DNA from: Desulfomonilia bacterium
Lineage (GTDB): Bacteria; Desulfobacterota; Desulfomonilia; UBA1062
Assembly: GCA_050014195.1 (NCBI GenBank)
Contig: JBEKDT010000028.1
Span: forward strand, 1-15,037
Length of the DNA: 15,037 nt
Direction of reading: 5' to 3'
Positions 1 through 15,037 of the stretch are shown here, piece after piece; positions within the stretch are counted from its first letter, which is position 1; every line of letters begins with the position of its first letter. Made by a program: the position numbers and the translations under genes. The notes under the pieces are model-generated. The model had not been told where the DNA came from and ran no database searches. It saw nothing but the letters and a program-made list of their open reading frames with translations.

Positions 1-121
1 GTATCTGGGAAACTTATTTTGGTCCTCTGAGACTTGGTGAAGTGAGTGAGAGGCTCAAATGAACCGGAAAGTGTTACCTATGTCCCTTTACTTTTTGTTA
101 CCTATGTCCTTGACCTGTACA
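1..121 (+). mobile_element. Right end of an IS481-like insertion sequence
   Basis: Two direct repeats TGTTACCTATGTCC (72-85, 96-109) and a terminus ...GACCTGTACA-121 (5'-TGT on the other strand). Nt 51-121 recur exactly, inverted, at 14967-15037. Confidence 0.75.
3..62 (+). CDS. C-terminal fragment of a probable IS481-family transposase, cut by the window edge
   Basis: Frame from nt 3 reads IWETYFGPLRLGEVSERLK* (TGA 60-62). This resembles the W-x-x-Y-F-G-P-x-x-L-G tail of IS481-type transposases and is followed directly by an IS-like end. It is too short to appear in the ORF track. Confidence 0.65.
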   Translation: MWETYFGPLRLGEVSERLK

Positions 122-347
122 CCCCACGAACCCGCCTTGAAGGGTTCGTTCGCTCGCTTGAAAAATCAGGGCCGCGAGCAAATTTCTTCAGGATAGAAGA
201 AATTGACGCACCTTGCGTGCGCCCGGAGGGTGAGGGACAGGGATGTCCTGAGTCAAAACTCGCTCCGTTTCGCTTCGCTCAGACAAACGCCGCTATTCCC
301 CCTGATTTTTCTTCGCTCGCTCACCAGGTTCAGAGGGGTTTAAAAAA
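122..347 (+). repeat. Structured intergenic repeat, copy A (IS-interrupted, with a 75-bp internal insertion)
   Basis: Aligns by eye with 13300-13450 and with the reverse complement of 14827-14966: CCCCAC(t)GAACCCGCC..GTTCGCTCGCTTG..AACTCGCT..CGCTCAGACAA..CGCTC.CTCACC.GGTTCA..GGGG. Confidence 0.85.
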
Positions 348-357
348 CCCCAGGGCC

Positions 358-398
358 GGGTGGCACGGGCGAAGCCCGAAGGGCTTGCCCGTGGGACA
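358..398 (+). repeat. REP-like palindrome (GTGG foot plus hairpin), left member of an inverted pair
   Basis: GGGTGG-CACGGGC-G-AAGCCC-GAA-GGGCTT-GCCCGTG-GGACA. It is 40/41 identical to the reverse complement of 636-676. Confidence 0.8.
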
Positions 399-418
399 TT
401 TCTCCAAGGGTAGACTAT

Positions 419-597
419 CCATTATATGACGAATGCATACATGAAGAAGCCCCTCTCCGTTCTGTCTGAATCGATTGCCTGGATCAGCCAGATGATTTCT
501 CGGAGGATAAGAGAGGCATCCTTACTTAACATGAGAAGGTCGGTTCATGGGCGTGCCCGGGCGGATTGAAATGCATGGCCCTTGTTTATGAATACAT
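419..597 (-). pseudogene. Decayed N-terminal fragment of a REP-associated tyrosine transposase (RAYT/TnpA-REP)
   Basis: Minus-strand translation across stops and a frameshift gives MHFNPPGHAHEPTFSC*VRMPLLSSE / IIWLIQAIDSDRTERGFFMYAFVI. This follows the RAYT pattern (GHAH..TF.C..R.PLL...W....I......GF...A.V.MP.HxH) and stops just before the HUH motif. It lies between two inverted REPs. Confidence 0.7.
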
Positions 598-635
598 TCC
601 AGAGAAAAAGATCGTGGAATGGTGCTAAACTATTC

Positions 636-676
636 TGTCCCAAGGGCAAGCCCTTCGGGCTTCGCCCGTGCCACCC
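636..676 (-). repeat. REP-like palindrome, right member of the inverted pair
   Basis: Reverse complement of 358-398 with one mismatch. Confidence 0.8.
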
Positions 677-691
677 AAGATTTTTCTTCTT

Positions 692-853
692 CTATCCTGG
701 CCACCCGCCCGCCCGGGCGATAACCGCACCAACTTTCGGTACGACCTTACCAGGCTCGCTTTTTGATTGTCGTGCGAGCGCTATTGCTCTCAGCATTAGC
801 TCCCTATCAGTCTGCTTTCGTTGTTCTTTGCCGGATCGTGCTACTCTTGCCAT
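692..853 (-). pseudogene. Truncated gene cassette: N-terminus of a CMP/dCMP (RibD-like) deaminase-fold protein
   Basis: ATG at 853 follows AGGAG. TDRELMLRAIALARQSKSEPGKVVPKVGAVIARAG matches the D..M..A..LA......P.VGAV start of cytidine-deaminase-fold proteins. Similarity ends at a REP-like GGGTGGC (706-700), before the HxE/CxxC zinc motifs. Confidence 0.6.
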
Positions 854-895
854 TGGTGTCTGCTCTCCTGCGTCATAATTCCCTGTTTCCTTGCG

Positions 896-959
896 GTACA
901 ACGTTGCGCATCAGCGGCGCGGGCGGCAGCCCGCGCCCGCCTGCATGCGCTAGTTAGGC
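896..959 (-). other. Integron attC recombination site (64 bp)
   Basis: Minus strand: R'' GCCTAAC, TAGCG, L'' CATGCAG, GCGG, GCGCGGGC-TGCC-GCCCGCGC, CG, L' CTGATG, CGCAAC, R' GTTGTAC. AAC/GTT cores pair, CAT(G)CAG/CTGATG leaves one extrahelical base, and the upstream gene's TAA lies inside R''. Confidence 0.85.
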
Positions 960-1403
960 GATTCTTTTTTCTTTGACTTCCCTAATGATTCGTCGCACAC
1001 ATCCATCATCACATAACTCATATAAAGGGCGTTTCTGAAGAAGGCGAAAGAACAAGAGGAGATCTGCTCCTTGAAGTTCATCCATATATATTTTTTGAAT
1101 GCCCGGTGTGAGTCCCTGGGCTTCTATAATTGAACATGCTTCTGCTACCTCCTCACTTGAATTAAGACCAAGTACACCCGCTCTTAACATACCATTCATG
1201 TCGGATGTTGTTACTGAATTAACTAAATCTCTGTATCGGCTGACCACACCATGTATTCTCTTTATCCTTTCCTCTTCTCTTTCTATTTCATGACGTTGTA
1301 TATCTTTTTTCATAAGTTGTTTGCCACGCTGAACACCAGCAAAGTAGATAAGAACATAGATAATAATCGCTGCAACAGTTAAGAAAATGTCAAGAGTTAA
1401 CAT
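954..1403 (-). CDS. Hypothetical cassette protein, 149 aa, with an N-terminal transmembrane helix and a charged helical segment
   Basis: AT-rich ORF with AGGA upstream of the ATG and hydrophobic IFLTVAAIIIYVLIYFAGV. It is bounded by GTTAGAT upstream and attC downstream. No family recognised. Confidence 0.75.
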   Translation of the reverse strand: MLTLDIFLTVAAIIIYVLIYFAGVQRGKQLMKKDIQRHEIEREEERIKRIHGVVSRYRDLVNSVTTSDMNGMLRAGVLGLNSSEEVAEACSIIEAQGLTPGIQKIYMDELQGADLLLFFRLLQKRPLYELCDDGCVRRIIREVKEKRIA

Positions 1404-1417
1404 ATGTAATCCTAATT

Positions 1418-1424
1418 ATCTAAC
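1418..1424 (-). other. Cassette 5' boundary / attI-like core GTTAGAT
   Basis: GTTRRRY core 14 nt upstream of the cassette ATG. GTTAG is complementary to CTAAC of the cassette's R''. No attC hairpin is visible upstream of it. Confidence 0.5.
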
Positions 1425-1553
1425 AGGATAATAGAGAGCAAATGTGGAAAAGTGGAAGTCAGGGCAATATTCATGTCTTAAGAAAAATTTAGAAGGTTTT
1501 ATCTTCGTCTCCCCTTCAACTAAACCGATACAAACTCATCAACTCTAAATTAT

Positions 1554-1582
1554 ATTATACAGGTTGCCAGAAAAATGGTCAA
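1554..1582 (-). promoter_or_regulatory. Sigma70-type promoter pointing into the cassettes (Pc-like)
   Basis: Minus strand TTGACC-N17-TATAAT, just downstream of the rmuC stop. Confidence 0.65.
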
Positions 1583-1614
1583 GAAACCTCTCTTTGATCC
1601 TACTCTTAGGGAAT

Positions 1615-2985
1615 CTATTGTACGTTCCCACCCTCAGGCTGATCATCACCCGGTGCTGCAATGCTCCTGAGCGCCACTTCCACCGGCTCGGGGCATTCAA
1701 GTGCTTCGCCGTGCTCGGGCGCGGTGAGGTCTTTGAGGCGGTTGGCGGACGGGAGGATGCGCGACTCAAAGGAGCCGAGCGCTGTATTATAAGATTCAGT
1801 GGCTTTTTGGAGCCCGTCGCGGATCTTGTCGAAGTGCCTCACAAAGGTCTTGAGCCGGTCGAACAGCTCGACGCCGGTCTCCCAGATCTTGTGCGCGTTC
1901 TCGGATGCGCTCTGCTGCTGCCAGCTCATGGCTACGGAGCGCAGCAGTGCAATGAGGGTCACCGGCGTTGCAATGAGAATCCTCTTTTCGATGCCGTCTT
2001 CGATGAGGGTCTTGTCCTGGTCCAAGGCAGCGCTGAAAAAGGCCTCGCCGGGCAGGAACAGGACCACGAAATCGGGTGTGGGGGTGAACTGCTTCCAATA
2101 TTCCTTTGAGGCAAGGGCATTCATGTGGTCCCGCACGGATCTTGCGTGTCTGCCCAGGCATGTAGCCTGTATACTCGGGTCCGTGGCCTCGTAGGCCTCA
2201 AGATAAGCCCTTAAAGGAACCTTGGCATCGATGACCACCTGCCTGTCTCCGGGGAGCTTTACGATCAGGTCAGGCCGCTTCCTTCCCGTTTCACTTTCGG
2301 CAACGGGCTGCTCTATGAAGTCACAGTGGGAAGACATGCCCGAGAGCTCCACTACCCGCTTCAAGGTGATCTCTCCCCACCTGCCCCTGGCCTGGGGCTC
2401 CTTCAGGGCTGAGGCCAGGGTCCTGGTCTGGTCGGTGAGCCTGTCCTGCATCTTCACCAGCTCCTCGATGTGGCGGCTGATGTCGCCGTAGGCTGATTGG
2501 CGTGAGCCCTCCATGGCCTGGATCTGGGTCTCATATCGCTTGAGCGATTCCTCCAGCGGCTTCACAACCGCTTCAACAGCGCCCTGCCTCTTCTCGAAGT
2601 CGCCCTTCATCTCGGCCACTACCGCCTCCATAGTCTTGCCTGCCAGTTGTATGAAGGCCTGGTTGTTCTGATTGAGTGCATCCAGCGAGAGGGCCTTGAA
2701 GGTCTCGGTGAGCTGCCTGGCCGCATTATCCAGCAGAACCTTCTGCTCAGTGAGGGATGCCTGGGCCTCTTGAAGCCTCGTCTCTAGGCGGGCACGCTCC
2801 AGGCGCTCTTTCTCCAGGAGGTCACGCGCCTCTATAAGCTCCTGCCTGAGCCGGGACTCCAAGGTGAGGCTATCTGCGGCGGCTTTCTCTCCGGCCTTCA
2901 GCTCGCCCGAATACTGGGCCCGGGCAAAGAACCATCCGGCTATGCCGCCTATGATGAATGTAACTGCAAGAAGCAGGTATTCCAT
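1615..2985 (-). CDS. rmuC: DNA recombination protein RmuC
   Basis: N-terminal TM helix, coiled coil, RGRWGEITL, RPDLIVKLP, IDAKVPL, PDFVVLFLPGE and ATPVTLIALL motifs. Confidence 0.93.
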   Translation of the reverse strand: MEYLLLAVTFIIGGIAGWFFARAQYSGELKAGEKAAADSLTLESRLRQELIEARDLLEKERLERARLETRLQEAQASLTEQKVLLDNAARQLTETFKALSLDALNQNNQAFIQLAGKTMEAVVAEMKGDFEKRQGAVEAVVKPLEESLKRYETQIQAMEGSRQSAYGDISRHIEELVKMQDRLTDQTRTLASALKEPQARGRWGEITLKRVVELSGMSSHCDFIEQPVAESETGRKRPDLIVKLPGDRQVVIDAKVPLRAYLEAYEATDPSIQATCLGRHARSVRDHMNALASKEYWKQFTPTPDFVVLFLPGEAFFSAALDQDKTLIEDGIEKRILIATPVTLIALLRSVAMSWQQQSASENAHKIWETGVELFDRLKTFVRHFDKIRDGLQKATESYNTALGSFESRILPSANRLKDLTAPEHGEALECPEPVEVALRSIAAPGDDQPEGGNVQ

Positions 2986-3044
2986 GATACCCCTCTCTCA
3001 TCCAGTCAATAGTGAAGCATGCAATGTGCGCATTCATAATATGG

Positions 3045-3102
3045 CCCCCCTCACCCCGGCCCTCTCCCTCTAAGCCCAGGGGGAGAGGGTATGGGGGAGG
3101 GG
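3045..3102. repeat. CCCTCACCC..CCCTCTCCC/GGGAGAGGG-type GC-rich intergenic palindrome
   Basis: CCCCTCACCCCGGCCCTCTCCCTC..GGGGGAGAGGG..GGGGGAGGGG. Related copies at 7429-7482 and 13115-13151. Confidence 0.7.
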
Positions 3103-3252
3103 ACCCTCTGGGTATAGTTGGTTTATCCGAATGCGTCCTGGTATCACAATAGCTCCATCAGACAGACCCGTACAAGCACATTCTCCAGGGGATCATGATC
3201 ATAAGTTCATGCACGAGACACAGGGCATGATGAGAGGGGTTACCCTTATTTT

Positions 3253-4998
3253 TTACATTATATTCCGTGCAGGATGGGGTATGAATGTGCCTTGTGAGGT
3301 AGGGTATGTCTTATTCTTGGATTTTGCCAATGCTTCAAGTTCCAGGGCCTTTGCATTTTTCTCATAAGACATGCGGGGCTCATAGGTCCAGCCCGAGGCG
3401 AGCCGCTTCTGCTCCTTTTTTATGGCAAAATGGGCGAACACCCCCAGCACTGGTGCGATGATCCTGGTCTTCCATCCGAATTCTTTGTATATGTCACGCA
3501 AAATGGATCCAATCTTGTCGTGCATTCTCTGATCATCTTTGTACCATCGCTTCATTGCCCATACTGCTGCGGCATAGGTGGTCTTCAGATATTTTATCTC
3601 CCACTTCAGACGAGCGCGTATGCATGGGTCGGGATGGTTCTTGTATCGCTTCCAGCCGGCAAGCATGGTGCGTATCATCCTGGCGAGGCTGGGGCCGTTT
3701 ACCTCAAAGTCTTGATTGAAGGCATTGCGAAGATATTCGGTTTCCCGGCCGTCCTTGATGTACTTATGAGAAAAGTTGAAACGGTGCTGTCCATGATTAT
3801 CCGCTGCCGGGCGTTCATCCTCACCCAGAAGGGTCCCATCCTTTTTGTGCCGTTCATATAAAGGTGTACCAGGAATGGGTGTGTAGAGCATGAACTGGTG
3901 AAAAACCGTATCGTGTCGAACAGCATAATCTATAACCCGATCAATGTTCTCATGGGTATGATTCTCCAGACCGAGAATCGTTGATCCCAAGACTCGTATG
4001 CCGTGGGATTGGAGCTCCTGCACTAAATCTCTTGTTTGAACACCGCTGAGTTTTCCATAGGAGCTGTTTTCACCCTCCAAGCCCATCCAGACCCACGATA
4101 TGCCCAGGCGGATCAGTTGTTCCATGGTATATGACTTCAAAACCCTGGCTGAAGAGAATACGAACAAGGCCCAGGACTTCTTGTTCAGCTTCATCAGTTC
4201 CAAAAGCCGCAGTGCCCTGTCGCGCTGCAGGAGGAAGTTCTCATCCATCACGAAAAAGGCGCTCACCTTAAGCTTTGCCTCAATGTCACACATGACCGCG
4301 AACAGGTCATCCCCTGTTTCATAGAAGTTGATGAACTTGCCTTTCCCCCCGTACAAGGCGGACGTAGAGCAGAAGTTACACCCCATGGGGCATCCAACCG
4401 AGGGTATTAACATTGCTGCGGTGTTTACCGGTTTATCAGGTGTGCTTATGCCGAGAATTCTGGTGCCGAATCCGGAATATACTATTGGGTGTTTTATAGG
4501 GGCCTTCTCGTTGAGGCCCAGGAATTTTCTGAACCAGCTCACCCCCTCTCCCTTGCAGATATAATCTGCATCAATGGTGTGCTTCAGGTCCGGCATGTTG
4601 GCAATATGCCCCCCCACGACTATTGTTGCCTTAGGCAGATGCGTGCGGATCAGCTCGCACATCTTTTTTACCTTTCCGATGTTCGGGATGATGGCGCTGA
4701 TGCCGATGATGTCATACGAATTATCAGTGAGTTCATCGGTAAATCGTTCCAGGCTCGGGAAGTCCAGGAGCGTGCACGGGGCATCGATATTTTCTTTCAG
4801 GAGCATCAACCCGAATGAGCGATGAAACATGCGGAGTGAAAAAGGCCCCTGCTCACGGGTGACCTGGTTGTGGTAGAGCTCCATAGGGTTGATCTTCCGG
4901 CTCCCATACTCATCGTCCCTGGCATAGGGGCCGAATACGCTCGTTAATAATATGTTGGCTCGTGATCCGAGCGGATGCTTTGGGCTCATTGTTTCCAT
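3253..4998 (-). CDS. Cobalamin(B12)-binding-domain radical SAM protein
   Basis: N-terminal DIIGISA...IVVGGH...GEG B12-binding-like domain, GCPMGCNFC CxxxCxxC, MDENF, MGLE and TPIPGTPLY motifs. Substrate unknown. Confidence 0.85.
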   Translation of the reverse strand: METMSPKHPLGSRANILLTSVFGPYARDDEYGSRKINPMELYHNQVTREQGPFSLRMFHRSFGLMLLKENIDAPCTLLDFPSLERFTDELTDNSYDIIGISAIIPNIGKVKKMCELIRTHLPKATIVVGGHIANMPDLKHTIDADYICKGEGVSWFRKFLGLNEKAPIKHPIVYSGFGTRILGISTPDKPVNTAAMLIPSVGCPMGCNFCSTSALYGGKGKFINFYETGDDLFAVMCDIEAKLKVSAFFVMDENFLLQRDRALRLLELMKLNKKSWALFVFSSARVLKSYTMEQLIRLGISWVWMGLEGENSSYGKLSGVQTRDLVQELQSHGIRVLGSTILGLENHTHENIDRVIDYAVRHDTVFHQFMLYTPIPGTPLYERHKKDGTLLGEDERPAADNHGQHRFNFSHKYIKDGRETEYLRNAFNQDFEVNGPSLARMIRTMLAGWKRYKNHPDPCIRARLKWEIKYLKTTYAAAVWAMKRWYKDDQRMHDKIGSILRDIYKEFGWKTRIIAPVLGVFAHFAIKKEQKRLASGWTYEPRMSYEKNAKALELEALAKSKNKTYPTSQGTFIPHPARNIM

Positions 4999-5149
4999 GG
5001 TTGTTCTCCTTGGGGAAAGATATGATGAGGTATATCGTCCGGATCAACAATATTAACAATCTAATTATTTGATTTCACATTATAATTACAATTCGTTTGC
5101 ATATGATTTACGTAAGGAGGGCTTAAACAAGATTAAAGTGGTTCATAAC

Positions 5150-5863
5150 TTAAAGTCTTGTGGCTGGAATAGGGGCCTGGAGCATGATGCTGTAGGCCCC
5201 GCTCCGGGTGACGATAAGGTGGTCGTGCAGGCTGATGCCCACCTGCGAGCAGATCTCCGTGAGTTGCCGGGTGAGGCGCATGTCCTGTTCGGATGCGTGA
5301 AGCGTGCCCGAGGGGTGGTTGTGCACGAGGATCAGTGCGGTTGCATTATGATCCATTGCAACCCTGAGGACCTCCCTGGGGTAGATATGGGCCGCATCAA
5401 CAGTGCCCTCGGCCATGACCTGGGTATGAACAAGACGGCCTGCTGCGTTCAGGCACACCAGCATGAACTGCTCTCTTGTGCCGCCGCCGATCTCGGCCCT
5501 TATGAAACCCACCACGTCTTCGGGCCCGGAGATCACGCGGCCTGCATCGGCGTCAGGTTCCATATACCGGCTCACGCAGGCACGGGTGAGTCCCATGAGC
5601 GTGGAGGCATGTCCGCCCATGCCGTGGATCTCTTCAAGATGCTCATAAGGTGCATCGAGAACGGCCTGGAAGGTCCCGAACCGCTTAAGCAGAGCCTTGG
5701 CAAGGGGCTTGGTATCCTGACGGGGGATGGCATAGCCCAGCAGAAGCTCCAGGAGCTCATAGTCCTGGAATGCCTTTCTGCCCGACTTCCGGAAGCGGCC
5801 TTTCAGCCGGGTCCTGTGCCCGGTGTAAAGGGCCTTCTGTCCGTCCTTTTTCTTATCAGTCAT
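5150..5863 (-). CDS. radC: RadC-family JAB-domain protein
   Basis: GHRTRLKGRF, DYELLELLL, DTKPLAKALLKRFG, GTVD...YPREV, HNHPSG..S..D and HDHLIV motifs. ATG 5863 (AAGGA upstream) is preferred over GTG 5869. Confidence 0.92.
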   Translation of the reverse strand: MTDKKKDGQKALYTGHRTRLKGRFRKSGRKAFQDYELLELLLGYAIPRQDTKPLAKALLKRFGTFQAVLDAPYEHLEEIHGMGGHASTLMGLTRACVSRYMEPDADAGRVISGPEDVVGFIRAEIGGGTREQFMLVCLNAAGRLVHTQVMAEGTVDAAHIYPREVLRVAMDHNATALILVHNHPSGTLHASEQDMRLTRQLTEICSQVGISLHDHLIVTRSGAYSIMLQAPIPATRL

Positions 5864-7406
5864 GTCCACTATCCTTTACACACCCAGTGGAGTAGAATGA
5901 CCACGGCAGAACCTCATTTTCATCCCTTTCCCTCAACGCATAGTAATCGGGGTTCAGCGGCCACTGCTTCAACAGGCGCTGCCATGCTGAGGCATCGTGA
6001 CCGGCCAGTTCCACGATGAGCCCCAGTAGCTTCCTGTCACCCCGGGCGATCAAGGCCTGGAGAAACGCCCACTTCGGCCCTTCAAAGCTCACCGCGATAT
6101 TGCTCTCCCCCTTCAACGCCTTTTCGATCCGTTTGATACATGCCTTGGCCTCATCAGGCCCGGTCATCGGTTGTCTCTCATAGGGGGTATGCGGCTTGGG
6201 GACAAAGGCATTGATGCTGACACTGAGACTGCCGATTTTTCTGTTGCCCTTGGATACCTGGATGAAGATCTGTCGGATGCGCTTGATGAGGTCCACGGTC
6301 TCATTGAGGTTGTCAAGGGTCTCACCCGGCAACCCCACCATGAAGTAGAGTTTGATGTCCCTTATTCCGCTGGCTACCAGGGCCCGGATATCTTCAAGGA
6401 TAGCGGCATTGGTAATGTGTTTGCCCAGGGCATACCTCAGCCCCTCAGAGCCCGTCTCAGGGGCCAGCGTCACACCCTTGACCTGCGATTCGGCCAAGGC
6501 CTGCAGAAGGTCATTACCGATCATGCCGGGCCTCAGCGAAGGCGGGGCCACTTTCAAGCCTCGATCGCGCATTTCCCTGAAGATGGCCGGGGCATCGGGG
6601 TGGTTGTTGAGCGAGGTGCTCACCAGGCCTACCTTGCCGCGATGCCTGGCCGCCTCGTCGAACACAGGCTCAAGTATCGTAAGCGGTACTGCCCGGTAGG
6701 GGGCATATATCTCGCGGGCGCTGCAGAACTTGCAGGTAAAGGGGCACCCCCGGGCGATCTCAAGGAGGTACATGTCACCAAAGGCCGTATCTTTTGTGAT
6801 GATGCTTGTGCAGGCCGGGTCATCCATCGGGTCAATATGGGAAGGCCGCGGCATGGGTCCCTCGAAACCTACGATGACTCCCTCTTCGTAGACGGGATGC
6901 ATCCTTGATGGGATGTACACACCCGGCACAAGGCTCAGCCGGTCAAGGAAATCTTCATATCCCGAACTTGCGGCATATGATTCATGAAGGACGGCCGGCA
7001 GCGGCTCGCCATCACCGATGAAACAGATATCCAATGCATCGGCCACGGGCTCGGGATTAGACGTTATGGTCGCCCCGCCTGCCATCACAATGGGTTTACC
7101 CCTGCGGTCGCGAGCCGATACGGGTACATTGTTCGCCTTCAGAATCTTTATGGCCTCAATATAGTCGAGCTCATAGGAGATAGAAAAGGCTATGATGTGG
7201 AAATCCTGGAGCGGCCGGTCCGATTCCACTGAACGGGGGCTGTCCGTGAAGAACCGCTCGCACAGGATGCCTGGATGGTTGTTGAGCAACCGGTACATCT
7301 GCTGCAGCCCGAGGTTCGACATGCCTACCCAGTACGTGTTTGGGTAGACCAGGGCGACATTCAGCTTGCCGCCCGGGTCCTTGCGTACTGATCCGGTCTC
7401 ATTCAT
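5856..7406 (-). CDS. Radical SAM protein (TIGR03960/YgiQ-like uncharacterised family)
   Basis: YPNTYWVGMSNLG, FSISYELDY, EIARGCPFTCKFC, TLAPETGSE, KLYFMVGLPGE and FVPKPHTP motifs. Its stop overlaps the radC start. Confidence 0.85.
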   Translation of the reverse strand: MNETGSVRKDPGGKLNVALVYPNTYWVGMSNLGLQQMYRLLNNHPGILCERFFTDSPRSVESDRPLQDFHIIAFSISYELDYIEAIKILKANNVPVSARDRRGKPIVMAGGATITSNPEPVADALDICFIGDGEPLPAVLHESYAASSGYEDFLDRLSLVPGVYIPSRMHPVYEEGVIVGFEGPMPRPSHIDPMDDPACTSIITKDTAFGDMYLLEIARGCPFTCKFCSAREIYAPYRAVPLTILEPVFDEAARHRGKVGLVSTSLNNHPDAPAIFREMRDRGLKVAPPSLRPGMIGNDLLQALAESQVKGVTLAPETGSEGLRYALGKHITNAAILEDIRALVASGIRDIKLYFMVGLPGETLDNLNETVDLIKRIRQIFIQVSKGNRKIGSLSVSINAFVPKPHTPYERQPMTGPDEAKACIKRIEKALKGESNIAVSFEGPKWAFLQALIARGDRKLLGLIVELAGHDASAWQRLLKQWPLNPDYYALRERDENEVLPWSFYSTGCVKDSGHD

Positions 7407-7428
7407 ATGCAGGTCTCAATAAGCGAAA

Positions 7429-7482
7429 CCCCCTCACCCTTCCCCTCTCCCCCTGGTAGGGGGAGAGGGCGGGGAGAGGGGG
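7429..7482. repeat. CCCTCACCC..CCCTCTCCC/GGGAGAGGG-type palindrome
   Basis: CCCCCTCACCCTTCCCCTCTCCCCCT-GGT-AGGGGGAGAGGGCGGGGAGAGGGGG between ntrX and the radical SAM gene. Confidence 0.7.
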
Positions 7483-7523
7483 CACTTGATCTGGAAAAAC
7501 TACCAGCTGGCAGCAATTTGGAT

Positions 7524-8873
7524 TCACTCAACATCAATACCTAAGCTCTTGATCTTCCTATGCAGATTGCTCCGCTCAACGCCGATTGAATCGGCAGTCT
7601 TGGATATATTGTTCCCGCACTGCTGGAGCTTGCGCTCGATAAAAATCTTCTCGAACCCGGCTCTGGCATCTTTGAGTTCCTGCATATCAAAGAGCTTATC
7701 CATCTCGGAGGTGGTCCTGGTTCCGAGCGGCATGATGTCATCGGCAGTAATGGTATTGCCCGGGGTCATGATGATCAGGCGTTCGATAATGTTCTTGAGC
7801 TCGCGCACGTTGCCCGGCCAGTCGTGTTGCATGAGCTTCTTGATGGCCCCCTCGGTCATAGTCTTCTTGCCGCCCTTCAGGGGGGAGAAGAGCTTGAGGA
7901 AATGATCCACCAGCTCAGGGATGTCATCCCTCCGGTCGATGAGGCGCGGCACATAAATAGGTATGACATTGAGCCGGTAATAGAGGTCCTGACGGAAGCG
8001 TCCCTCTGCAATCTCCTGCTCCAGGTTCTTGTTGGTGGCAGTCAGCACCCGTACATCCACCTGGATGGTCTGGGCGCCGCCCACCCGCTCGAAGCGTTGC
8101 TCCTGGAGGATACGCAGGATCTTTGCCTGGGTGGGCAGGCTCATGTCTCCGATCTCATCCAAGAAGAGCGTGCCGTTGTGCGCCAGGTCGAACTTTCCAC
8201 GCTTGCGCTCGCTTGCACCGGTGAAAGACCCTTTCTCATGGCCGAAGAGCTCGCTTTCGATGAGCTCTTGAGGAATGGCGGCGCAGTTCACCTCCACAAA
8301 GGGATAGCTTGCCCTCCTGCTGTTCTTGTGAATGCGGCGGGATACCAGCTCCTTGCCCGTGCCGTTCTCTCCGAGGATAAGGACCCATGCATCCGTGGGG
8401 GACACGCGGTCGATCTGCTCCTTGAGCCTGAGGATGGCAGGCGAGTTCCCGATGATTTCATCGTCCTTCTCGGTCTTCTTCTTTAAGAGGGCATTCTCTT
8501 CCTCCAATGCCCGCAAGTGGATGGTGTTGTTGATGGTGATGATGATCTTGTTGAGGTCCAGCGGTTTCTCGATGAAATCAAGCGCGCCGAGCCTTGTAGC
8601 GCGGATGGCGGTCTCGATGGATCCATGGCCGGTCATGATGATGACCGGGATGGTGAATCCGGCTGCCTTTATCTCCTCCAGAATCTGAAGCCCGTCCTTG
8701 CCGGGCATCCAGATGTCCAGAAGAATGAGGTCCACATCCTGCTTCTCGATGATTTTAAAACCCTCTTCACCGGATGATGCAAGCAGCGTGTTGTATCCTT
8801 CGTCTTCCAGCCCGCCCTTGAGCGATAGCCTGATGTTCTCTTCATCATCCACAATGAGTATGGTGTTTTTCAT
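7524..8873 (-). CDS. ntrX: NtrX/NtrC-family sigma54-dependent response regulator
   Basis: Receiver (ILIVDDE, LDIWMP, KP), AAA+ (GENGTGKE, ESELFGHEKGSFTGA, LFLDEIGD, WPGNVREL) and Fis-type HTH. Directly follows ntrY. Confidence 0.88.
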   Translation of the reverse strand: MKNTILIVDDEENIRLSLKGGLEDEGYNTLLASSGEEGFKIIEKQDVDLILLDIWMPGKDGLQILEEIKAAGFTIPVIIMTGHGSIETAIRATRLGALDFIEKPLDLNKIIITINNTIHLRALEEENALLKKKTEKDDEIIGNSPAILRLKEQIDRVSPTDAWVLILGENGTGKELVSRRIHKNSRRASYPFVEVNCAAIPQELIESELFGHEKGSFTGASERKRGKFDLAHNGTLFLDEIGDMSLPTQAKILRILQEQRFERVGGAQTIQVDVRVLTATNKNLEQEIAEGRFRQDLYYRLNVIPIYVPRLIDRRDDIPELVDHFLKLFSPLKGGKKTMTEGAIKKLMQHDWPGNVRELKNIIERLIIMTPGNTITADDIMPLGTRTTSEMDKLFDMQELKDARAGFEKIFIERKLQQCGNNISKTADSIGVERSNLHRKIKSLGIDVE

Positions 8874-8875
8874 TC

Positions 8876-11053
8876 TTACTCCTTAACGGGCAGCTCTATG
8901 CTGAAGATGGTGCCTTTCGGCTCGTTGTCCTTGACGCGTATGAATCCGTTATGGTCCGAGATGATACGGTTCACGATCACAAGTCCCAGTCCCGTACCCC
9001 CCTTCCTGGTGGAGAAGTACGGCTCGAACATGCGCTCTTTGACGATCTTGGGGATGCCGGGGCCGGTATCTATGATGTCCAGTTTTGCGATGTGGACCTC
9101 CGCATCATAACTGGTCTTGATCGTTATTTTCTTGTCGGGGCTGTTGCTCTCCAGGATGGCCGTCGTGGAGTTCTCAAGGAGGTTGGTGACGGCCCTGTTC
9201 ATCTGGGAGCTGTCGATGTCGATCTTGGGCATGCCCTCATCAAGCTCGAGGGTGTACTCCATGGCCTGGTGGGCCTGACGATAGAGAGCTACCGCATCCA
9301 TTACCACCTTGTTGAGGTCTTCAGGTACGGGCATGGAAGTGGGCATCTTGGCAAAGGCGCTAAATTCGTTCACCAAGCGCTTCATCATGTCCACTTCATT
9401 GATGATGACGCGGGTACATTCATCGAAGACCGCCGCATCATCACCGAGCTTGTCCATGTATCTGCGCCTGAGCCTCTGGGCAGAGAGCTGGATGGGGGTG
9501 AGAGGATTCTTCACTTCATGCGCGATCCTGCGCGCCACCTCCCGCCATGCAGCCATGCGCTGCATTCTCTGGAGCTGGGTAAGATCGTCGAATACGAGGA
9601 CCATGCCTATCCGTTCGTTATTGTCACCATAGAGCACAGAGGCCTGGCCCAGCAGCGTCAGCCACTTCCCGCCTATTGACACGCTCAGCTGCTTCTGGAT
9701 GGATGATGGTCTGGAGTTCTTTAATCCGGAGGCCAGCTCGGTAAAGATGGGCAGGTATTCACCCGACAAGACATCCTCTACATCCTTACCCATGGCCTTT
9801 GGGGAGGCAAGCCCGAGCATGGTCTCTGCGGAAGGGTTGATCATCACGATGCGGTCATCTCGATTGATCGTGATCACCCCGGTGGAGATGGTGTTGAGGA
9901 CCGTCTCGATATAACGGGTTCTCATGGAGATCTCGTTGTACGCACTCTCGAGGTTTCTGCGCGATGCTTTGAGGTCATCCACCATGACGTTAAAGTCATC
10001 GACCAGGATCCCCAGCTCATCAGTAGCCTGGACATCGATCTTAAATCCCAGGTCTCCCTTGGAGATCTTCTGAGTACCTTCTACGAGTTTTTCTATAGGG
10101 TTGATGAGACCTTTGGCGATATTCAGCGCGAACCATACGGCAGAGAAGATCACGAGCAGGGTCACCGAGGTTAAGATGATGATGTAGTTCGTCTTGATGG
10201 GACCCTTGAGCCTGAGGTTCTGGGAATAGTCCTTGAATGAGCCTTTGATAAGACTGAGCCTCCCCGAGAGGCTCTCAGGTACAAAGTAGTCCACCACGAG
10301 AACCCCTACGATATCGGCCGGGTTAAATGATGATCGGATCGGCACGAATCCTTCAATAATGTCTGCTTTGCCTTTTCGCACGACCATGGACATGCCCTTG
10401 CCCTGCATGGCGGATCTGACGGTACCGGATTCAGTGGTCGGCATGGCCTCGGCCCGGAGGTTCGGCGAGAGGATCTTCGCCAATTCTTCTCCCTGGGCCG
10501 AGAAGACCACTACGGATGACAGCCTGAACAAGTCCATTTTCTCCTGTAGCATGGCTTTTAAGATATTGAGGTTTTCTTCCTTTAAAAGCCTGCCTTCGGT
10601 GATCTCCTTCGAGATGGAGCTTGCATAATGGATGGCATCCGCCGAGGCTTCCTGGTAGTAGATATTCGCCACATTCATGGACTCCTCGATCGCGTCCTCC
10701 ACCTCATTGGAGAGCCATCCCTCCATGCTCCGGTTCAGGAAGACCACGCTTGCGAAGAAGAGCACGGTGGTGGGTATGATGGTAAGTGTCACAAAGGCGA
10801 CCACGAGCTTGGTCCTGAGCCTGGTGCCCAACACCCCCCTCCTGCGTTCGAGCATGAGCTTCACCACGTTGCGGATCACCAGGAAGACCACCAGGATGAG
10901 GAGCACTACATTGAGGCTGATTATGGTGAACACGACTGCATTGCTGGATGGCACGAGGCTCAGGCTGCTCAGGTTCGTCTTTACAATGCTCATGAGAACC
11001 ATCATGAGGATGATGGCTGCAACAATGATCATCTCCTTTGTCTTCTTGGACAT
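8876..11053 (-). CDS. ntrY: NtrY-family HAMP/PAS sensor histidine kinase
   Basis: TM segments, HAMP (DELGILVDDFNVM), PAS, AAWREVARRIAHEVKNPLTPIQLSAQRL, DTGPGI and GTGLGL motifs. Confidence 0.9.
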   Translation of the reverse strand: MSKKTKEMIIVAAIILMMVLMSIVKTNLSSLSLVPSSNAVVFTIISLNVVLLILVVFLVIRNVVKLMLERRRGVLGTRLRTKLVVAFVTLTIIPTTVLFFASVVFLNRSMEGWLSNEVEDAIEESMNVANIYYQEASADAIHYASSISKEITEGRLLKEENLNILKAMLQEKMDLFRLSSVVVFSAQGEELAKILSPNLRAEAMPTTESGTVRSAMQGKGMSMVVRKGKADIIEGFVPIRSSFNPADIVGVLVVDYFVPESLSGRLSLIKGSFKDYSQNLRLKGPIKTNYIIILTSVTLLVIFSAVWFALNIAKGLINPIEKLVEGTQKISKGDLGFKIDVQATDELGILVDDFNVMVDDLKASRRNLESAYNEISMRTRYIETVLNTISTGVITINRDDRIVMINPSAETMLGLASPKAMGKDVEDVLSGEYLPIFTELASGLKNSRPSSIQKQLSVSIGGKWLTLLGQASVLYGDNNERIGMVLVFDDLTQLQRMQRMAAWREVARRIAHEVKNPLTPIQLSAQRLRRRYMDKLGDDAAVFDECTRVIINEVDMMKRLVNEFSAFAKMPTSMPVPEDLNKVVMDAVALYRQAHQAMEYTLELDEGMPKIDIDSSQMNRAVTNLLENSTTAILESNSPDKKITIKTSYDAEVHIAKLDIIDTGPGIPKIVKERMFEPYFSTRKGGTGLGLVIVNRIISDHNGFIRVKDNEPKGTIFSIELPVKE

Positions 11054-11058
11054 GACGG

Positions 11059-11877
11059 CTACTCCTGATACTGTTGCTGCGTGCTTAAGAAAATCTGTTT
11101 TGCAAGTCGGATGTGCAGCGTGTGGTTTGCCTTAAAGGCGCTGATTCGGGATTGAAGGGGCGCTTGAAGGGTCCACAGATCGCCCAGGATATCCAGGACT
11201 TTGTGGCGAACGAATTCATCCGGGAAACGCAGACCCTCGGGATTGATGATGCGGTCGTGGTTCACTACGACTGCATTATGTAACCCACCGCCTAAGGCAA
11301 GCCCTGCGGCATGCATCATCTCCACGTCCTTGAGTCTGCCGAAGGTGCGGGCGGGTGCAATCCGGTGTACATAATCATGGCCGTTAAAGATGAACCGCTG
11401 CCGCCCTATGGCCGGGTCGGGAAAGTCTATCTCATAGGTGAGACTGAACGGCCCCGGTGCCGCCTCGATCCAGGCGCTTCCTTCCTCGATGCGGATAGGT
11501 GAGGCAAGCTCGATTGGGGTACACTCAAGACCCAAGCCCTCGGTGCCTGCCTCCTGAAGGAGCTCGACAAAGGGCAGGGCAGAACCGTCCATGGAAGGCA
11601 TCTCCGAACCGCTTACCTCGATGAGGCAATCGGTAATACAAACGCCGTAGAGGGCGGACATGAGGTGCTCGATAGTGGATATGGCTACAGTCCCGTTGCC
11701 TATGGTCGTGTTCTGCCGCGTATCTACGACATTGGGCGGTGTTGCGGGGATTCGCTTTCCATTGCTGATGAAAACGATCCCTTCGGAATTGGGTGTCAGG
11801 TGCAACAAGGCTGTATCCCCTTTGTGGAGGCCGATGCCTTCGATCATCAGCTCTTTTTTTATGGTCCTGCGTTCCAT
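11059..11877 (-). CDS. lpxC: UDP-3-O-acyl-N-acetylglucosamine deacetylase
   Basis: GIGLHKG, STIEHLMSAL, MDGSA, IAPARTFG, GLALGG and RFPDEFVRHKVLDILGDL motifs. Confidence 0.95.
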   Translation of the reverse strand: MERRTIKKELMIEGIGLHKGDTALLHLTPNSEGIVFISNGKRIPATPPNVVDTRQNTTIGNGTVAISTIEHLMSALYGVCITDCLIEVSGSEMPSMDGSALPFVELLQEAGTEGLGLECTPIELASPIRIEEGSAWIEAAPGPFSLTYEIDFPDPAIGRQRFIFNGHDYVHRIAPARTFGRLKDVEMMHAAGLALGGGLHNAVVVNHDRIINPEGLRFPDEFVRHKVLDILGDLWTLQAPLQSRISAFKANHTLHIRLAKQIFLSTQQQYQE

Positions 11878-11941
11878 GGCAGGTCCTAGATTATGTAAGG
11901 CTCACCCATTAGTCAAATCCTATTGTGTTTGGGCGCCATAT

Positions 11942-11996
11942 CCCTGTCAGACGTGGAGCCTCACATTTGACAGGGCTTCATGAAATGCACTATAGA
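11942..11996 (+). promoter_or_regulatory. Putative tatB promoter overlapped by an inverted repeat
   Basis: TTGACA (11967-11972)-N18-TATAGA. The palindrome CCCTGTCAGACGTG-N6-CACATTTGACAGGG (12/14 complementary) spans 11942-11975. Confidence 0.4.
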
Positions 11997-12004
11997 GCTA
12001 TACT

Positions 12005-12286
12005 ATGTTTGAACTCAGCCTACCGCACATCCTCCTTCTTCTGGTCATTGCCATGCTCGTTATCGGGCCGAAGAACCTTCCCGAGATTGCAAAGACTCTC
12101 GGCAAGATCTTCGGCGAATTCCAGAGGGCCGCTGACGACCTCAAGCGTGAGATTCGGACCTCATCCGAGACAAAACCGGCGGATAATCCCGAGCAAAAGG
12201 ACGTGAAGAGCGAGGAATCTGCAGCAAAGCCCGAGAATAACACTGCGGCCTCGGACTCGACAGCCCCTCCTGAAAAAAATTCTTGA
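12005..12286 (+). CDS. tatB: Twin-arginine translocase TatA/TatB-family subunit (probably TatB)
   Basis: TM helix ending VIGPKNLPEIAKTLGK, an amphipathic helix and a polar tail. Directly upstream of tatC. Confidence 0.8.
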   Translation: MFELSLPHILLLLVIAMLVIGPKNLPEIAKTLGKIFGEFQRAADDLKREIRTSSETKPADNPEQKDVKSEESAAKPENNTAASDSTAPPEKNS

Positions 12287-12308
12287 TATCTTAAAAAAGG
12301 ACTCCCGC

Positions 12309-13052
12309 GTGGATGATGAGAAGATGCCGGTAATCGATCACCTGGAAGAGCTCAGGTCGAGACTCATCAAGTGCTTTATCGCTGTTATAGCAGGATTCAT
12401 CATATCATATTTGTTCTCCCAGCAGCTCTTCAGTTTCCTGACCTATCCCCTGGTCAAGGCCATGCCGAAGGGAGGCAAGCTTATCTACACCTCGCTGCAG
12501 GAGGCCTTTGTCACATACATGAAGATCTCATTCTTCGCAGGGCTTTTCCTGGCAGCACCGGTAATCTTCTACCAGCTCTGGAAATTCATAGTACCGGGCC
12601 TCTACAAGAGGGAGCGCACCTATGTGGTACCCTTTGTGATCGCGGCATGCATCTTCTTTATCATGGGGGCGTCCTTTGCCTTCTTTGTGGCCTTCCCTTT
12701 TGCATTCAAGTTCTTCTTGAGCTTCACCACGGAGCGCATCGAGGCCTTGCCCTCCATGAAGGAATACTTGAGCTTGTGCATCAGTCTCATCATAGCCTTC
12801 GGCATCACCTTCGAGCTGCCGGTAATCATGTTTTTCCTTGCCAGGATGGGCCTTGTGAATCACACCAAACTGAAAAAATCCCGTAAATACGCCTTCCTTA
12901 TCATTGCCTGTGCTGCCGCCTTTCTTACCCCCCCCGATATGTTGAGCATGTTTTTGCTCATCGTCCCTTTATATATCCTCTATGAACTCAGCATCCTGGT
13001 GGTCTACTTCACCAGGGAAAAGAAGACCCCAACCGAAGATGTTGCGGGCTGA
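12309..13052 (+). CDS. tatC: Twin-arginine translocase subunit TatC
   Basis: DHLEELRSRLI, YQLWKFIVPGLYKRER, FGITFELP, TPPD and PLYILYE motifs. GTG start. Confidence 0.96.
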   Translation: MDDEKMPVIDHLEELRSRLIKCFIAVIAGFIISYLFSQQLFSFLTYPLVKAMPKGGKLIYTSLQEAFVTYMKISFFAGLFLAAPVIFYQLWKFIVPGLYKRERTYVVPFVIAACIFFIMGASFAFFVAFPFAFKFFLSFTTERIEALPSMKEYLSLCISLIIAFGITFELPVIMFFLARMGLVNHTKLKKSRKYAFLIIACAAAFLTPPDMLSMFLLIVPLYILYELSILVVYFTREKKTPTEDVAG

Positions 13053-13066
13053 AATACCTTCCCTAT

Positions 13067-13094
13067 GTCATTCCCGCGGAAGCTTCGAATCCAG
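13067..13094. repeat. Degenerate GTCATTCCCGCG..GGGAATCCAG-type (dRS3-like) palindromic repeat
   Basis: GTCATTCCCGCGGAAGCTTCGAATCCAG. The left arm and tail match the widespread motif and the right arm is decayed. Single copy in the window. Confidence 0.45.
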
Positions 13095-13114
13095 ACAGAG
13101 CATGCACCTCTAGT

Positions 13115-13151
13115 CCCTTCTCCCCTTGCGGGAGAAGGACAGGATGAGGGG
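13115..13151. repeat. CCCTTCTCCC/GGGAGAAGG..GGATGAGGGG palindrome, same family as 3045 and 7429
   Basis: CCTTCTCCC-CTTGC-GGGAGAAGG followed by ACAGGATGAGGGG. Confidence 0.65.
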
Positions 13152-13254
13152 TAATAAGAGAAGTATTCCGTGCATGAGCGTCAAAGTCTTGGTTTGCAGT
13201 ATGGATAGAGTTAAATAAGACTCGTCATCTCTCTTTTGTTAAACCACATTTATT

Positions 13255-13450
13255 GTTACTTTCTTTTTGTGCAAAAAGAAAGTAACCAAAGAAAAGGCAC
13301 CCCACTGAACCCGCCCTGAAGGGTCCGTTCGCTCGCTTGGAAAATCCGGGACGCGACGGAACTCGCTCCGTTTCACTCCGCTCAGACAACCGCCGCTTTA
13401 CCCCGAATTTTCCTGCGCTCACTCACCGGGTTCAAAGGGGGAGAAAAAAA
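13255..13450 (+). repeat. Structured intergenic repeat, copy B (uninterrupted)
   Basis: Perfect 15-bp inverted repeat GTTACTTTCTTTTTG-TG-CAAAAAGAAAGTAAC (13255-13286), linker CAAAGAAAAGGCA, then the body from CCCCAC (13300) with nested pairings TGAACCCG/CGGGTTCA and GGAAAATCCGGG/CCCGAATTTTCC. Confidence 0.85.
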
Positions 13451-13697
13451 CTCTTTCTCAGTTTCTTTCCGATGACAGTGAATAAACTTTCTTAATCTGG
13501 ATAATTTTGAATAGAGAGAGTATTTGTTTGAAGTGGCAATACACCTTTGATCCACACCAACATCCAACACTGAAACATCAACACCTGTATGCACTAACTA
13601 TACGGATATACTGCATGTGTGCTTCAGATAACAATGGTGATATACTGCAAAAGTGCAGTAAAGTAATTGAGAACCTAAAAATTATTATGGACTCAAT

Positions 13698-14732
13698 ATG
13701 AATCAGTTACCAAAATCAAGTGATGAATTGAAACAGATATTAAAAGCTGCTGCTAAGATGTCTGATCGCAACTACTTAATATATGATACCTTTAAAAGTA
13801 TTACCGGTATTCCAATGAGTCTGATCTTGCGTCACTATGATTCTTGGACTGAAGCATGTAAAGACGCTGATGTAACACCAGGTCAAGCTTCTCCCCAAAA
13901 CATCACACCCAGGTATAGTAAAGGTAAACACCATGCTCTGTCTGAAGTAAAACGTATTGCAGCGATCCTTGGTACAGATACTTTATCAAGAAGTGAGTTA
14001 AACAGCCATAACCCAGAAGTTAAGGCAGCTACTGTAGCAAATCTCTGGGGTGGATGGAACAAAGCACTAGAAGCAGCTGGTCTTAAGACACATCCTTTAT
14101 TTTATGAAAATATCCCTATTGCAGAACTAGCGAAAGAGTTCCTTATTGTCTTCCATGAACTTAAGGGAAAAGTCCCAACCGCTCATCAAATCTCGAGAAG
14201 ATCAAGACATGGGAAAAATACCTTCACGCGAAAGTTCGGCAGTTACTCAGCCTTTAAAATTAAAGTCATAGAGTATCTCCTTTCAAATGAAAAGCTGACT
14301 GCAGATGCACGTCTGGTTTTAGAAAGCTGTCTAGATAGCCTTGGAACCAAACATAGATTTGAAGCAGAAATATTGCCTCGTCCTCATGCAAAGGGACGGC
14401 ATCTCGGTTTCCGAGCTTTTGCGTTCGCTCCAACCTATGAGGCCGAGGTTGTTTCCCTTTTCTCGTCTGTAGCTGACGAACTCGGGTTTGAAATCGTCGC
14501 CCAAAGATCTGCTTTCCCTGATTGTGAGGCTCGGCGTCTAATAGATAGAATTAGAAAGCGTTACGAGAAGTGCTTGATTGAGTTTGAGTTTCGGAGCAGT
14601 GACTACAAGAAGCACAGACATCCACTTAAAGGATGCAATCTAATTATTTGCTGGGAACATAACTGGGTAGATTGTCCCTTGGAGGTTCTTGAACTCAAAT
14701 CTGAGATTAATCGTCTTCCAGGGTGGAAGTAA
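13698..14732 (+). CDS. Putative nuclease: three homing-endonuclease-associated (HNH_repeat-like) repeats plus a C-terminal PD-(D/E)XK-like domain
   Basis: Repeats RHYDSWTEACKDADV, NLWGGWNKALEAAGL and RKFGSYSAFK. C-terminus YEAEVV...FPDC...IEFE..SS.Y..H.H....CNLIICWEHNW. More AT-rich than the core genes. Confidence 0.75.
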   Translation: MNQLPKSSDELKQILKAAAKMSDRNYLIYDTFKSITGIPMSLILRHYDSWTEACKDADVTPGQASPQNITPRYSKGKHHALSEVKRIAAILGTDTLSRSELNSHNPEVKAATVANLWGGWNKALEAAGLKTHPLFYENIPIAELAKEFLIVFHELKGKVPTAHQISRRSRHGKNTFTRKFGSYSAFKIKVIEYLLSNEKLTADARLVLESCLDSLGTKHRFEAEILPRPHAKGRHLGFRAFAFAPTYEAEVVSLFSSVADELGFEIVAQRSAFPDCEARRLIDRIRKRYEKCLIEFEFRSSDYKKHRHPLKGCNLIICWEHNWVDCPLEVLELKSEINRLPGWK

Positions 14733-14734
14733 AA

Positions 14735-14796
14735 GGCCAACCATCGGTTCCAGACGGACGCGGGCTGTCGCCCGCGCACTGATGTCTGTCTTATGA
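14735..14796 (+). other. Degenerate attC site
   Basis: Starts 2 nt after the stop: GGCCAAC-CATCG-GTTCCAG-ACGG-ACGCGGGC-TGTC-GCCCGCGC-A-CTGATG-TCTGT-CTTATGA. Spacing and central stem match the attC at 896-959, but the right arm does not pair and GTT is absent. Confidence 0.55.
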
Positions 14797-14826
14797 ATGA
14801 CTTTGAAAAGGCAAGATTCCTACTCG

Positions 14827-14966
14827 TTTTTTTATCCCCCTTGAACCCGGTGAGTGAGCGCAGGGAAATCCGGGAGAAAGCGGCGGTTGTCTGAGCGAAG
14901 CGAGTTCCGCCGCGACCCGGATTTTCCAAGCGAGCGAACGGACCCTTTAGGGCGGGTTCAGTGGGG
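14827..14966 (-). repeat. Structured intergenic repeat, copy C (IS-interrupted)
   Basis: Reverse complement reads CCCCACTGAACCCGCCCTAAAGGGTCCGTTCGCTCGCTTGGAAAATCCGGG...CTCACTCACCGGGTTCAAGGGGG, highly similar to copy B. Confidence 0.88.
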
Positions 14967-15037
14967 TGTACAGGTCAAGGACATAGGTAACAAAAAGTAA
15001 AGGGACATAGGTAACACTTTCCGGTTCATTTGAGCCT
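14967..15037 (-). mobile_element. Right end of a second copy of the IS481-like element
   Basis: Exact reverse complement of 51-121, including the transposase stop codon and both TGTTACCTATGTCC repeats. Confidence 0.78.

Follow-up and report, generated by a model that had tools for sequence, protein, structure and literature searches.

Evidence for site- and orientation-specific insertion of an IS481-family element into a structured repeat family of a Desulfomonilia genome

The locus and its insertion sequence

The window, as we call the whole 15,037-nt stretch of DNA analysed, is the entire contig C28 of a draft Desulfomonilia genome (G000; 29 contigs, 4.2 Mb), and an assembly check found a repeated insertion sequence (IS) at both of its ends. 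Core genes on this contig are rmuC, two radical-SAM genes, an NtrY/NtrX-like two-component pair, lpxC and tatC, and the runs containing window sequence are peat and wetland metagenomes. Bounded by two inverted IS copies, positions 1-15037 have the shape of a composite transposon with housekeeping content, and recombination between these copies could flip the window segment. Coordinates of all features are collected in Table 1.

The IS body is unassembled in G000, where all full-IS junctions fall at contig ends, and for this reason the genome gives no transposase match. Window positions 51-121 are the reverse complement of 14967-15037 (71 of 71 nt) and also equal the end of contig C16; repeat collapse to one consensus by assemblers could mask differences between IS copies. 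Complete copies are assembled in the sister species G003, the best being L013:1648-2934, a 1287-bp element with one open reading frame of 387 aa and no programmed frameshift. With the NCBIfam IS481 model NF033577 (cut-off 224) its transposase reaches 233.9 bits, with the IS3 model 133.8 bits, under the IS3 cut-off of 160, and with ISNCY_2 only 44.6 bits, so that IS481 is the best curated model. Pfam domains are rve, rve_3, HTH_32, HTH_28 and LZ_Tnp_IS481, with the HTH domains N-terminal. A 387-aa DDE transposase over the curated cut-off supports membership of the IS481 family, in accord with an earlier reading of the window made from the letters alone (the sequence-only reading), which had called the element IS481-like.

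The left terminus reads GGTACAG... and the right one ...CCTGTACA. Read inward, the right terminus is TGTACAGG, in keeping with the TGT...ACA rule given in the IS481EU passages of PMC10045372, whereas the left begins with G and not T. Each IS end holds two 14-nt GACATRGGTRACAC repeats spaced ~25 nt apart, and the left-end pair matches the right-end pair. These are presumed to be transposase-binding sites, by analogy with the ISAjo2 and Tn7 ends described in parts of PMC10132070. An IS630/Tc1-like reading, with a TA duplication and CAG ends, was ruled out by the family scan and by empty sites without TA.

The transposase is narrowly distributed. Of 122 genomes of the class, just two gave a match in a protein search at E<=1e-60, the sole extra hit of the class-wide search being L068, a 48%-identical relative without a hairpin at its end. 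Searching contigs with the transposase gave three complete copies (L040-L042, 88-100% identity) and one fragment, and none beyond the three G003 copies.

Table 1. Coordinates of window features, of related elements elsewhere, and of the loci compared. Contigs are those of G000 unless another genome is named.
Feature	Position	Strand	Remarks
Last 121 nt of IS (element positions 1167-1287 of 1287)	1..121	+	96.7% identity to L013:1648-2934
Transposase stop TGA	60-62	+	last transposase codons, then right terminal inverted repeat ending ...CCTGTACA at 121
Two subterminal 14-nt repeats, GACATAGGTAACA(C/A)	71-84 and 95-108	-	sequence read directly
CCC, right target-duplication copy of window-start insertion	122..124	+	left flanks end GGCACCC, right flanks start CCCCAC
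Repeat body copy A, long imperfect hairpin, occupied at 5' foot	122..338	+	nhmmer, model positions 51-121 and 106-193
Nested 77-nt three-hairpin mini-element in copy A apex	180..256	+	not part of IS; 24 copies in G000
REP-like GC-rich hairpin (…CCCACGGGCAAGCCCTTCGGGCTTCGCCCGTGCCACC…)	352-412 and 636-676		18 matches in G000
Small AT-rich hairpin of empty copy, 15-bp arms	13255..13286	+	covariation at 5/13 aligned pairs
Conserved linker CAAAGAAAAGGCA between hairpin and insertion point	13287..13299	+	
Unoccupied insertion site CCC	13300..13302	+	duplicated on insertion; bottom three pairs of long hairpin (alignment columns 58-60 with 202-204)
Empty-copy body	13300..13445	+	long imperfect hairpin, side tetraloop hairpin, variable apical stem
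attI-like leader after left bracket repeat	13486..13668	+	conservation ends at GTTRRRY-like word, then cargo differs
Cargo gene, 344 aa	13698..14732	+	homing-endonuclease-associated repeats
attC-like site after cargo gene (putative)	14738-14785	-	
Repeat body copy B, occupied at 5' foot	14836..14966	-	spanned by L044, L046
Copy B target-duplication GGG	14964-14966		read on +
Right end of second IS copy	14967..15037	-	inverted relative to window-start copy
Bracket pairs	window 13245-14968; C16:117391-118953, C15:12424-15962, C3:202908-205779, C9:38318-39701		
attI-like cores besides window	C15:12644, C9:38604, C6:86089, C16:117819, C3:203229, C20:36041, C5:182601, C1:149405, C22:8959		
attC-like sites (putative)	window 900-962 (+), 14738-14785 (-); C15:13481-13540, C1:159044-164384, C7:211328-212891, C6:137294		
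Mini-element examples	C15:128568 and 128729, C16:117320 and 117480, C3:202838 and 202996		
GTCATTCC-type palindromes	C15:128505-128535, C25:32610-32640; L013:1560-1590		
Locus A	C9/window start		flanks differ from other loci 8 nt left, 6 nt right of IS
Locus B	C15/window end (C28-end)		spanned by L044
Locus C	C25/C16		left flank orthologous to occupied G003:C34 site, 94.6% over 1471 nt
Locus D	C6 remnant + G003:C41 (L015) + L048		orthologous flanks
Locus E	G003:C1 (L014)		82%-identity subfamily; tRNA gene adjacent
Locus F	L049		83% identity, same subfamily as locus E; outside any repeat, without duplication

Junctions, target duplication and the target repeat

At 121/122 the IS terminus TGTACA is joined to CCCCAC, and the reverse complement of the same join lies at 14966/14967, so that both window ends show the same relative orientation, as the sequence-only reading had described. 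A third identical right end closes contig C16 and is likewise joined to the first nucleotide of the repeat body, giving three of three right ends in G000 at that nucleotide. Searching with the complete copy located the left ends, three at contig ends (C9, C15 and C25) and one as an 81-nt remnant inside C6 (C6:34825). All four are preceded by the small hairpin and CAAAGAAA(A/G)GGC(A/G)CCC, the arrangement that the earlier reading had predicted for the then missing left end. Three right and three left junctions imply three IS copies in G000. In G003 the hairpin and linker precede three of three left ends, and the body follows two of three right ends.

The junction census of the assembly therefore places all seven G000 IS ends at the same repeat point, not beside unrelated flanks. 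With 7/7 junctions at one point of a ~15-copy repeat in 4.2 Mb, chance is excluded as an explanation; we estimate that a random hit on a 2-nt window of one of ~15 copies, given orientation, has a probability of a few in a million.

One repeat in the window is uninterrupted and reads AAAAGGCA-CCCCAC at 13299/13300, and ten of the twelve empty G000 copies read GGCACCCC(A). The claim that the window holds the empty allele thus stands, but the join is not blunt: the breakpoint lies in a run of C, and 13300-13302 are duplicated. A target duplication had also been anticipated, with CCCCAC given as the example, and it does exist but measures 3 bp (CCC). Removing one CCC from GGCACCC-IS-CCCCAC restores the empty sequence GGCACCCCAC. 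CCC is duplicated at four loci (three in G000 and L013 in G003), and ACC in L048, which comes from another strain. The L048 junctions read GGCACC-IS-ACCCCC, for which the sole fit is a 3-bp ACC duplication 1 nt leftward, and rejoining the flanks gives a site equal to the empty copy C15:15962. The shifted site with its own duplication makes L048 a separate transposition event. A 5-bp duplication (CACCC, with the IS ending ...CCTGTA) fits four loci and fails at L048, and 3 bp is preferred. This size falls in the 2-15 bp range that passages of PMC10045372 give for the IS481 family but is unusual there. The insertion point lies 13 nt 3' of the small AT-rich hairpin, and the left end of the IS always faces that hairpin. 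Both the left-end flanks and the duplication matched what the proposal of target- and orientation-specific insertion had predicted.

Since every G000 junction sits at a contig end and the IS body is missing from that assembly, the pattern could have arisen from wrong joins of contig ends to the IS or from collapsed repeats. We give this explanation hardly any weight, because complete elements with both flanks lie inside contigs of G003 and in L044, L045 and L048, and because contigs from four further runs stop or fork exactly at 127. L044 spans one copy fully (C15 flank, IS, window-end body) and L045 another (C25 flank, IS, C16 body), with no differences between the two IS copies across 1287 nt. 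Having assigned the other flanks, they leave C9 as the partner of the window start, by elimination only. Metagenome contigs L044-L047 have flanks identical to the G000 contigs and are thus not independent of G000.

In each of the four further runs an IS contig of 1265-1318 nt covers window 1-127. In X4, X10 and X17 it forks at 127, one branch running on into copy A and the other into copy B/C16, and in X5 only the copy-B/C16 loose end is found among those listed. Three runs continue from 98 into copy A, with just 24 nt on the IS side, under the 31-nt bridging rule. The depth ratio of IS contig to unique flank is 2.0-2.9 in the four runs, which is consistent with about three copies but is given no weight here, contig depth not being the same as copy number. 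C16:117391, a different copy of the repeat, is the source of a loose end before 142 in the other-run contigs. The contigs of the four runs showed no empty allele of copy A, where missing coverage proves nothing.

The target is a repeat unit of ~190 nt with two hairpins, present in ~15 copies in G000, 12 of them unoccupied, with 85-90% identity between repeats. An alignment of 14 copies from six genomes contains 47 predicted pairs, shows compensatory changes at 16 of these, and comprises a 13-pair AT-rich hairpin, an invariant linker and a long imperfect hairpin with a covarying apical stem, whose side tetraloop is TTCG, TGAA or TAAA. Among 52 genomes of the taxonomic family, 11 contain the repeat, which is conserved across genera. 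No Rfam family reached its gathering score anywhere in the window, the only hits being at chance level (E up to 5) on 100-450 and 13200-13480; no RNA family described so far corresponds to the repeat or to the 77-nt mini-element nested in copy A.

The repeat is a target independent of the IS and not its cargo, since flank divergence starts exactly at the IS ends. Between L013 and L044 the IS differs at 31 of 1287 positions, against ~13 positions, by our count, in the 47-nt hairpin-linker flanks, and C9 has another hairpin at its junction than C15 and C25 although the IS ends are identical. It is conceivable that the hairpin-linker, the body or both belong to the mobile unit, the "empty" repeats being MITE-like, internally deleted IS derivatives. 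This would account for a hairpin-linker before every left end, including those of the 82%-identical L014 and the 54%-identical L050, and for the same hairpin, b, at three left ends (C15, C25 and L014). We nevertheless regard it as very improbable. The inverted repeats and paired 14-nt subterminal sites define the ends as GGTACAG and TGTACA, and from these exact ends on the flanks are, by our flank count, about ten times more diverged than the IS. Moreover, at E<=1e-60 no transposase match appears in nine related genomes that carry the repeat, G013 has a conserved counterpart (~74% identity) of the copy downstream of tatC at the same locus, and L049 and the relatives L051, L056 and L068 are without the hairpin.

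The sequence-only reading had also noted that the two occupied window copies differ while their IS ends are identical. This is so, but the insert in copy A, placed there at 75 bp, is ~77-80 nt (at ~177-256), in addition to substitutions between copies A and B. Other-run contigs skip from 176 to 257 (80 nt), and the mini-element model places the insert at 180-256. Compensatory changes occur in all three stems of this mini-element, which is sometimes tandem and sits in hairpin loops: those of the small hairpin and the apex of the bracket repeat and, elsewhere, that of a separate CCCCTC...GAGGGG palindrome. The CCCACGGGCAAGCCCTTCGGGCTTCGCCCGTGCCACC hairpin adjoins the right end of the IS in G003:C41 and truncated IS left ends in G000:C6 and G003:C5. 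Several bracket repeats are closely preceded by a short palindromic repeat of the GTCATTCC-CGCGAAAGCG-GGAATCC type.

One speculation did not survive, namely that the word TGTTAC links the IS subterminal repeats with the base of the target hairpin. Most occupied hairpins are without it, reading TGTTCA in C15 and C25, TGTGAC in L013 and CATTAC in C9.

Independence of the insertions and a proposed mechanism

Among full-length copies of at least 82% identity in G000, the sister species and metagenome contigs, five of six loci are at the same site and in the same orientation (loci A-F in Table 1). The two insertions in the window had been taken to be independent and recent. They do look independent: their partner flanks, C9 (by elimination) and C15 (from L044), carry different hairpins, and their bodies diverge 6 nt from the IS. 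Recency fails for the third G000 copy, C25/C16, whose left flank and body apex are common to the occupied G003 site, which makes this an old insertion. With one locus common to G003, independent events number ~4-5, not seven or more.

Loci B and C have identical flanks over 47 nt on the left (hairpin b and linker) and 56 nt on the right (the first 56 body nt), while the remaining bodies differ. This suggests either gene conversion between IS-bearing repeats or targets of one subfamily, and part of the spread may therefore be recombination and not transposition. Taken to its limit, the same process would mean that one chance insertion was copied between repeats by homologous recombination or gene conversion, with no target specificity at all, which would put the IS at an identical position and orientation every time; in its favour, the apical and 3' body of C25/C16 also match the G003:C34 copy where the IS-proximal parts do not. 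Against it, divergence of the C9/window-start flanks from the other loci sets in 8 nt left and 6 nt right of the IS, still other flanks are present in L013 and L014, and conversion cannot produce the 1-nt shift of L048 with its own ACC duplication. We consider copying of a single insertion improbable as the general explanation.

A probable orthologous empty site of copy A occurs in G003:C17, judging by a repeat copy that shares the private variants of copy A (GAAAAATCAGGG / CCCTGATTTTTC) ~450 nt from the start of synteny. The mini-element is missing from it. The upstream flank of the G003:C17 copy has no match to C9, C15 or C25 of G000, so the orthology rests on the right side only.

Locus D appears to hold one ancestral insertion in three states: in L048, hairpin, IS and body; in G003:C41, an IS with other sequence in place of its right flank from the very IS end onward; and in G000, the 81-nt remnant (G000 C6:34700-34950; L015 346-1660; L048). 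This looks like the result of IS-adjacent deletions. The right side of G003:C41 (L015) is without the body that the orthologous L048 locus has, and a later IS-adjacent deletion is the likely cause. At locus E, the small hairpin (L014 1880-1960, G003:C1) begins 8 nt past the CCA end of the tRNA gene.

With the anatomy and family of the element, its repeated use of one site, the duplication there and the repeat's independence from the IS all directly observed, we regard it as highly probable that this is an IS481-family element with site- and orientation-specific transposition into one structured ~190-nt repeat family. We infer that the transposase itself recognises the target. Most likely it would bind the DNA of the conserved linker and hairpin foot directly, perhaps in a bent or extruded form; tethering through a repeat-bound host protein, which a section of PMC10132070 proposes for ISAjo2 and XerC, seems less likely. 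Insertion falls at CCC, the 5' foot of the long hairpin, with 3 bp duplicated and a positional slack of ~1 nt. The repeat would serve as a safe landing site outside genes, and copies are probably also homogenised between sites through gene conversion. The soil-metagenome relative L050 (54% identity) likewise shows a sequence resembling the hairpin-linker at its left end, and the other relatives examined (L051, L056 and L068) are without the hairpin. The target preference may thus predate this subfamily, with hairpin-linker sequence in one of four relatives.

Target repeats form inverted pairs (+ then -) 1-3.4 kb apart, five of them in G000. Our reading counts at least 17 +/- pairs within 7 kb in five genomes, the pairing recurring in G002, G003, G004 and G024. 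Their cargo (an HNH-repeat protein, a TIR-TM protein, a DUF4365 protein and others) differs between loci and species, and each pair has the look of a bracket around a small cassette platform. No homologue of the 344-aa cargo protein of the window was found in 14 genomes of the genus, and the tatC locus in G013 has the same repeat and leader followed by a different first gene. G000 contains ~10 attI-like cores, with direct GCAAnnGTGC words and an end at a GTTRRRY-like word, six of them directly after a bracket repeat. Cassette-like ORFs are followed at their 3' ends by members of a putative attC-like family (…GCATCAGCGGCGCGGGCGGCAGCCCGCG…GTTAGGC), among them a site 560 nt from repeat copy A. 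No integron integrase IntI scored over the TIGR02249 cut-off in the G000 assembly. All three G000 insertions and that of L048 are in the array-distal bracket.

It is possible, although we hold this only tentatively and think it on balance doubtful, that the repeat is the bracket of a multi-copy, integrase-less, integron-like platform and that the IS481 element is a dedicated bracket hunter. Repeat pairs would enclose an attI-like leader and one to three variable, defence-type cassettes with attC-like ends, and insertion in the array-distal bracket would part the long hairpin from its T-rich tail. If true, paired IS copies could mobilise or invert cassette platforms.

Few plain one-protein DDE transposases insert site-specifically, and how they do so is poorly understood. 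The present element offers a compact, testable system with one protein, a ~60-nt target and a clear read-out, a 3-bp site (±1 nt) beside a 13-nt linker, and could be used to probe how integrase-like transposases read their targets, whether by sequence, DNA structure or a bound host protein. Its target may prove of greater importance than the IS itself, the repeat being conserved across genera with compensatory changes and bracketing attI-like leaders with variable cassettes in genomes that yielded no integron integrase over the cut-off.

Comparison with known systems

IS1111-attC elements and IS4321/IS5075 (IS110 family) enter structured sites of other mobile systems, namely attC or the terminal repeats of transposons, always with the same position and orientation. 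Their recombinase is of the DEDD type, and they have neither terminal inverted repeats nor target duplications. The present element resembles them in its fixed position and orientation in a structured site, while the mechanism is entirely different. IS481 itself prefers the short word NCTAGN. With typical IS481 members the element shares a score over the family cut-off, one ORF, a length of ~1.3 kb and a right end in ...ACA, but it differs in its 3-bp duplication, its long structured target and a left end of GGT instead of TGT. Passages of PMC10045372 give mostly 6-bp duplications for the family, in a range of 2-15 bp.

Repeat-hunting IS are already known. REP targeting is described for the IS3, IS110, IS4, IS256 and IS5 families in portions of PMC1525189, where the name IS481 does not occur at all. 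Our search of titles and abstracts, with ISfinder outside its scope, found no IS481-family element that targets REP-like or hairpin repeats; within the literature searched, an IS481 member with a structured-repeat target has not been found reported.

One parallel in behaviour is with IS1397, ISKpn1 and ISPsy8 of the IS3 family, whose copies all lie inside a palindromic intergenic repeat that is restored when the flanks are joined, according to parts of Tobes and Pareja (2006; PMC1525189), where five of five ISPsy8 copies are in the repeat. The duplication is 3 bp for most IS3 members in passages of PMC10045372. Like these elements, ours has an rve-type DDE transposase and a short duplication, its copies lie in the repeat (3/3 in G000, 5/6 loci overall), and the rejoined flanks equal empty copies. 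In contrast to the two frameshifted ORFs of the IS1397 group, it is a single-ORF IS481 member, and where that group enters a short high-copy REP in or near the loop, the present element enters a ~190-nt composite repeat at the foot of a long hairpin. With ~15 copies and two hairpins, the target is not a classical REP/BIME, which is a short GC-rich palindrome with >100 copies per genome.

A second parallel is with ISAjo2-type elements of the IS1202 family, which hunt pdif/dif sites, the targets bracketing gene modules in inverted orientation (sections of PMC10132070). The present element is like ISAjo2 as portrayed there, with its TGT/ACA-type ends, in a right end of that type, an extra internal site per end, a fixed orientation and distance, and a short duplication. 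The ISAjo2-type differs in a transposase of 441-457 aa, a 5-bp duplication and a 28-bp XerC/XerD target, against 387 aa and 3 bp here, and no dif-like 28-mer is obvious by eye at our target. The IS1202 group nests inside IS481 in the tree shown in a section of PMC10045372, and repeat targeting in an IS481 member links such behaviour to these dif-hunting IS1202 relatives.
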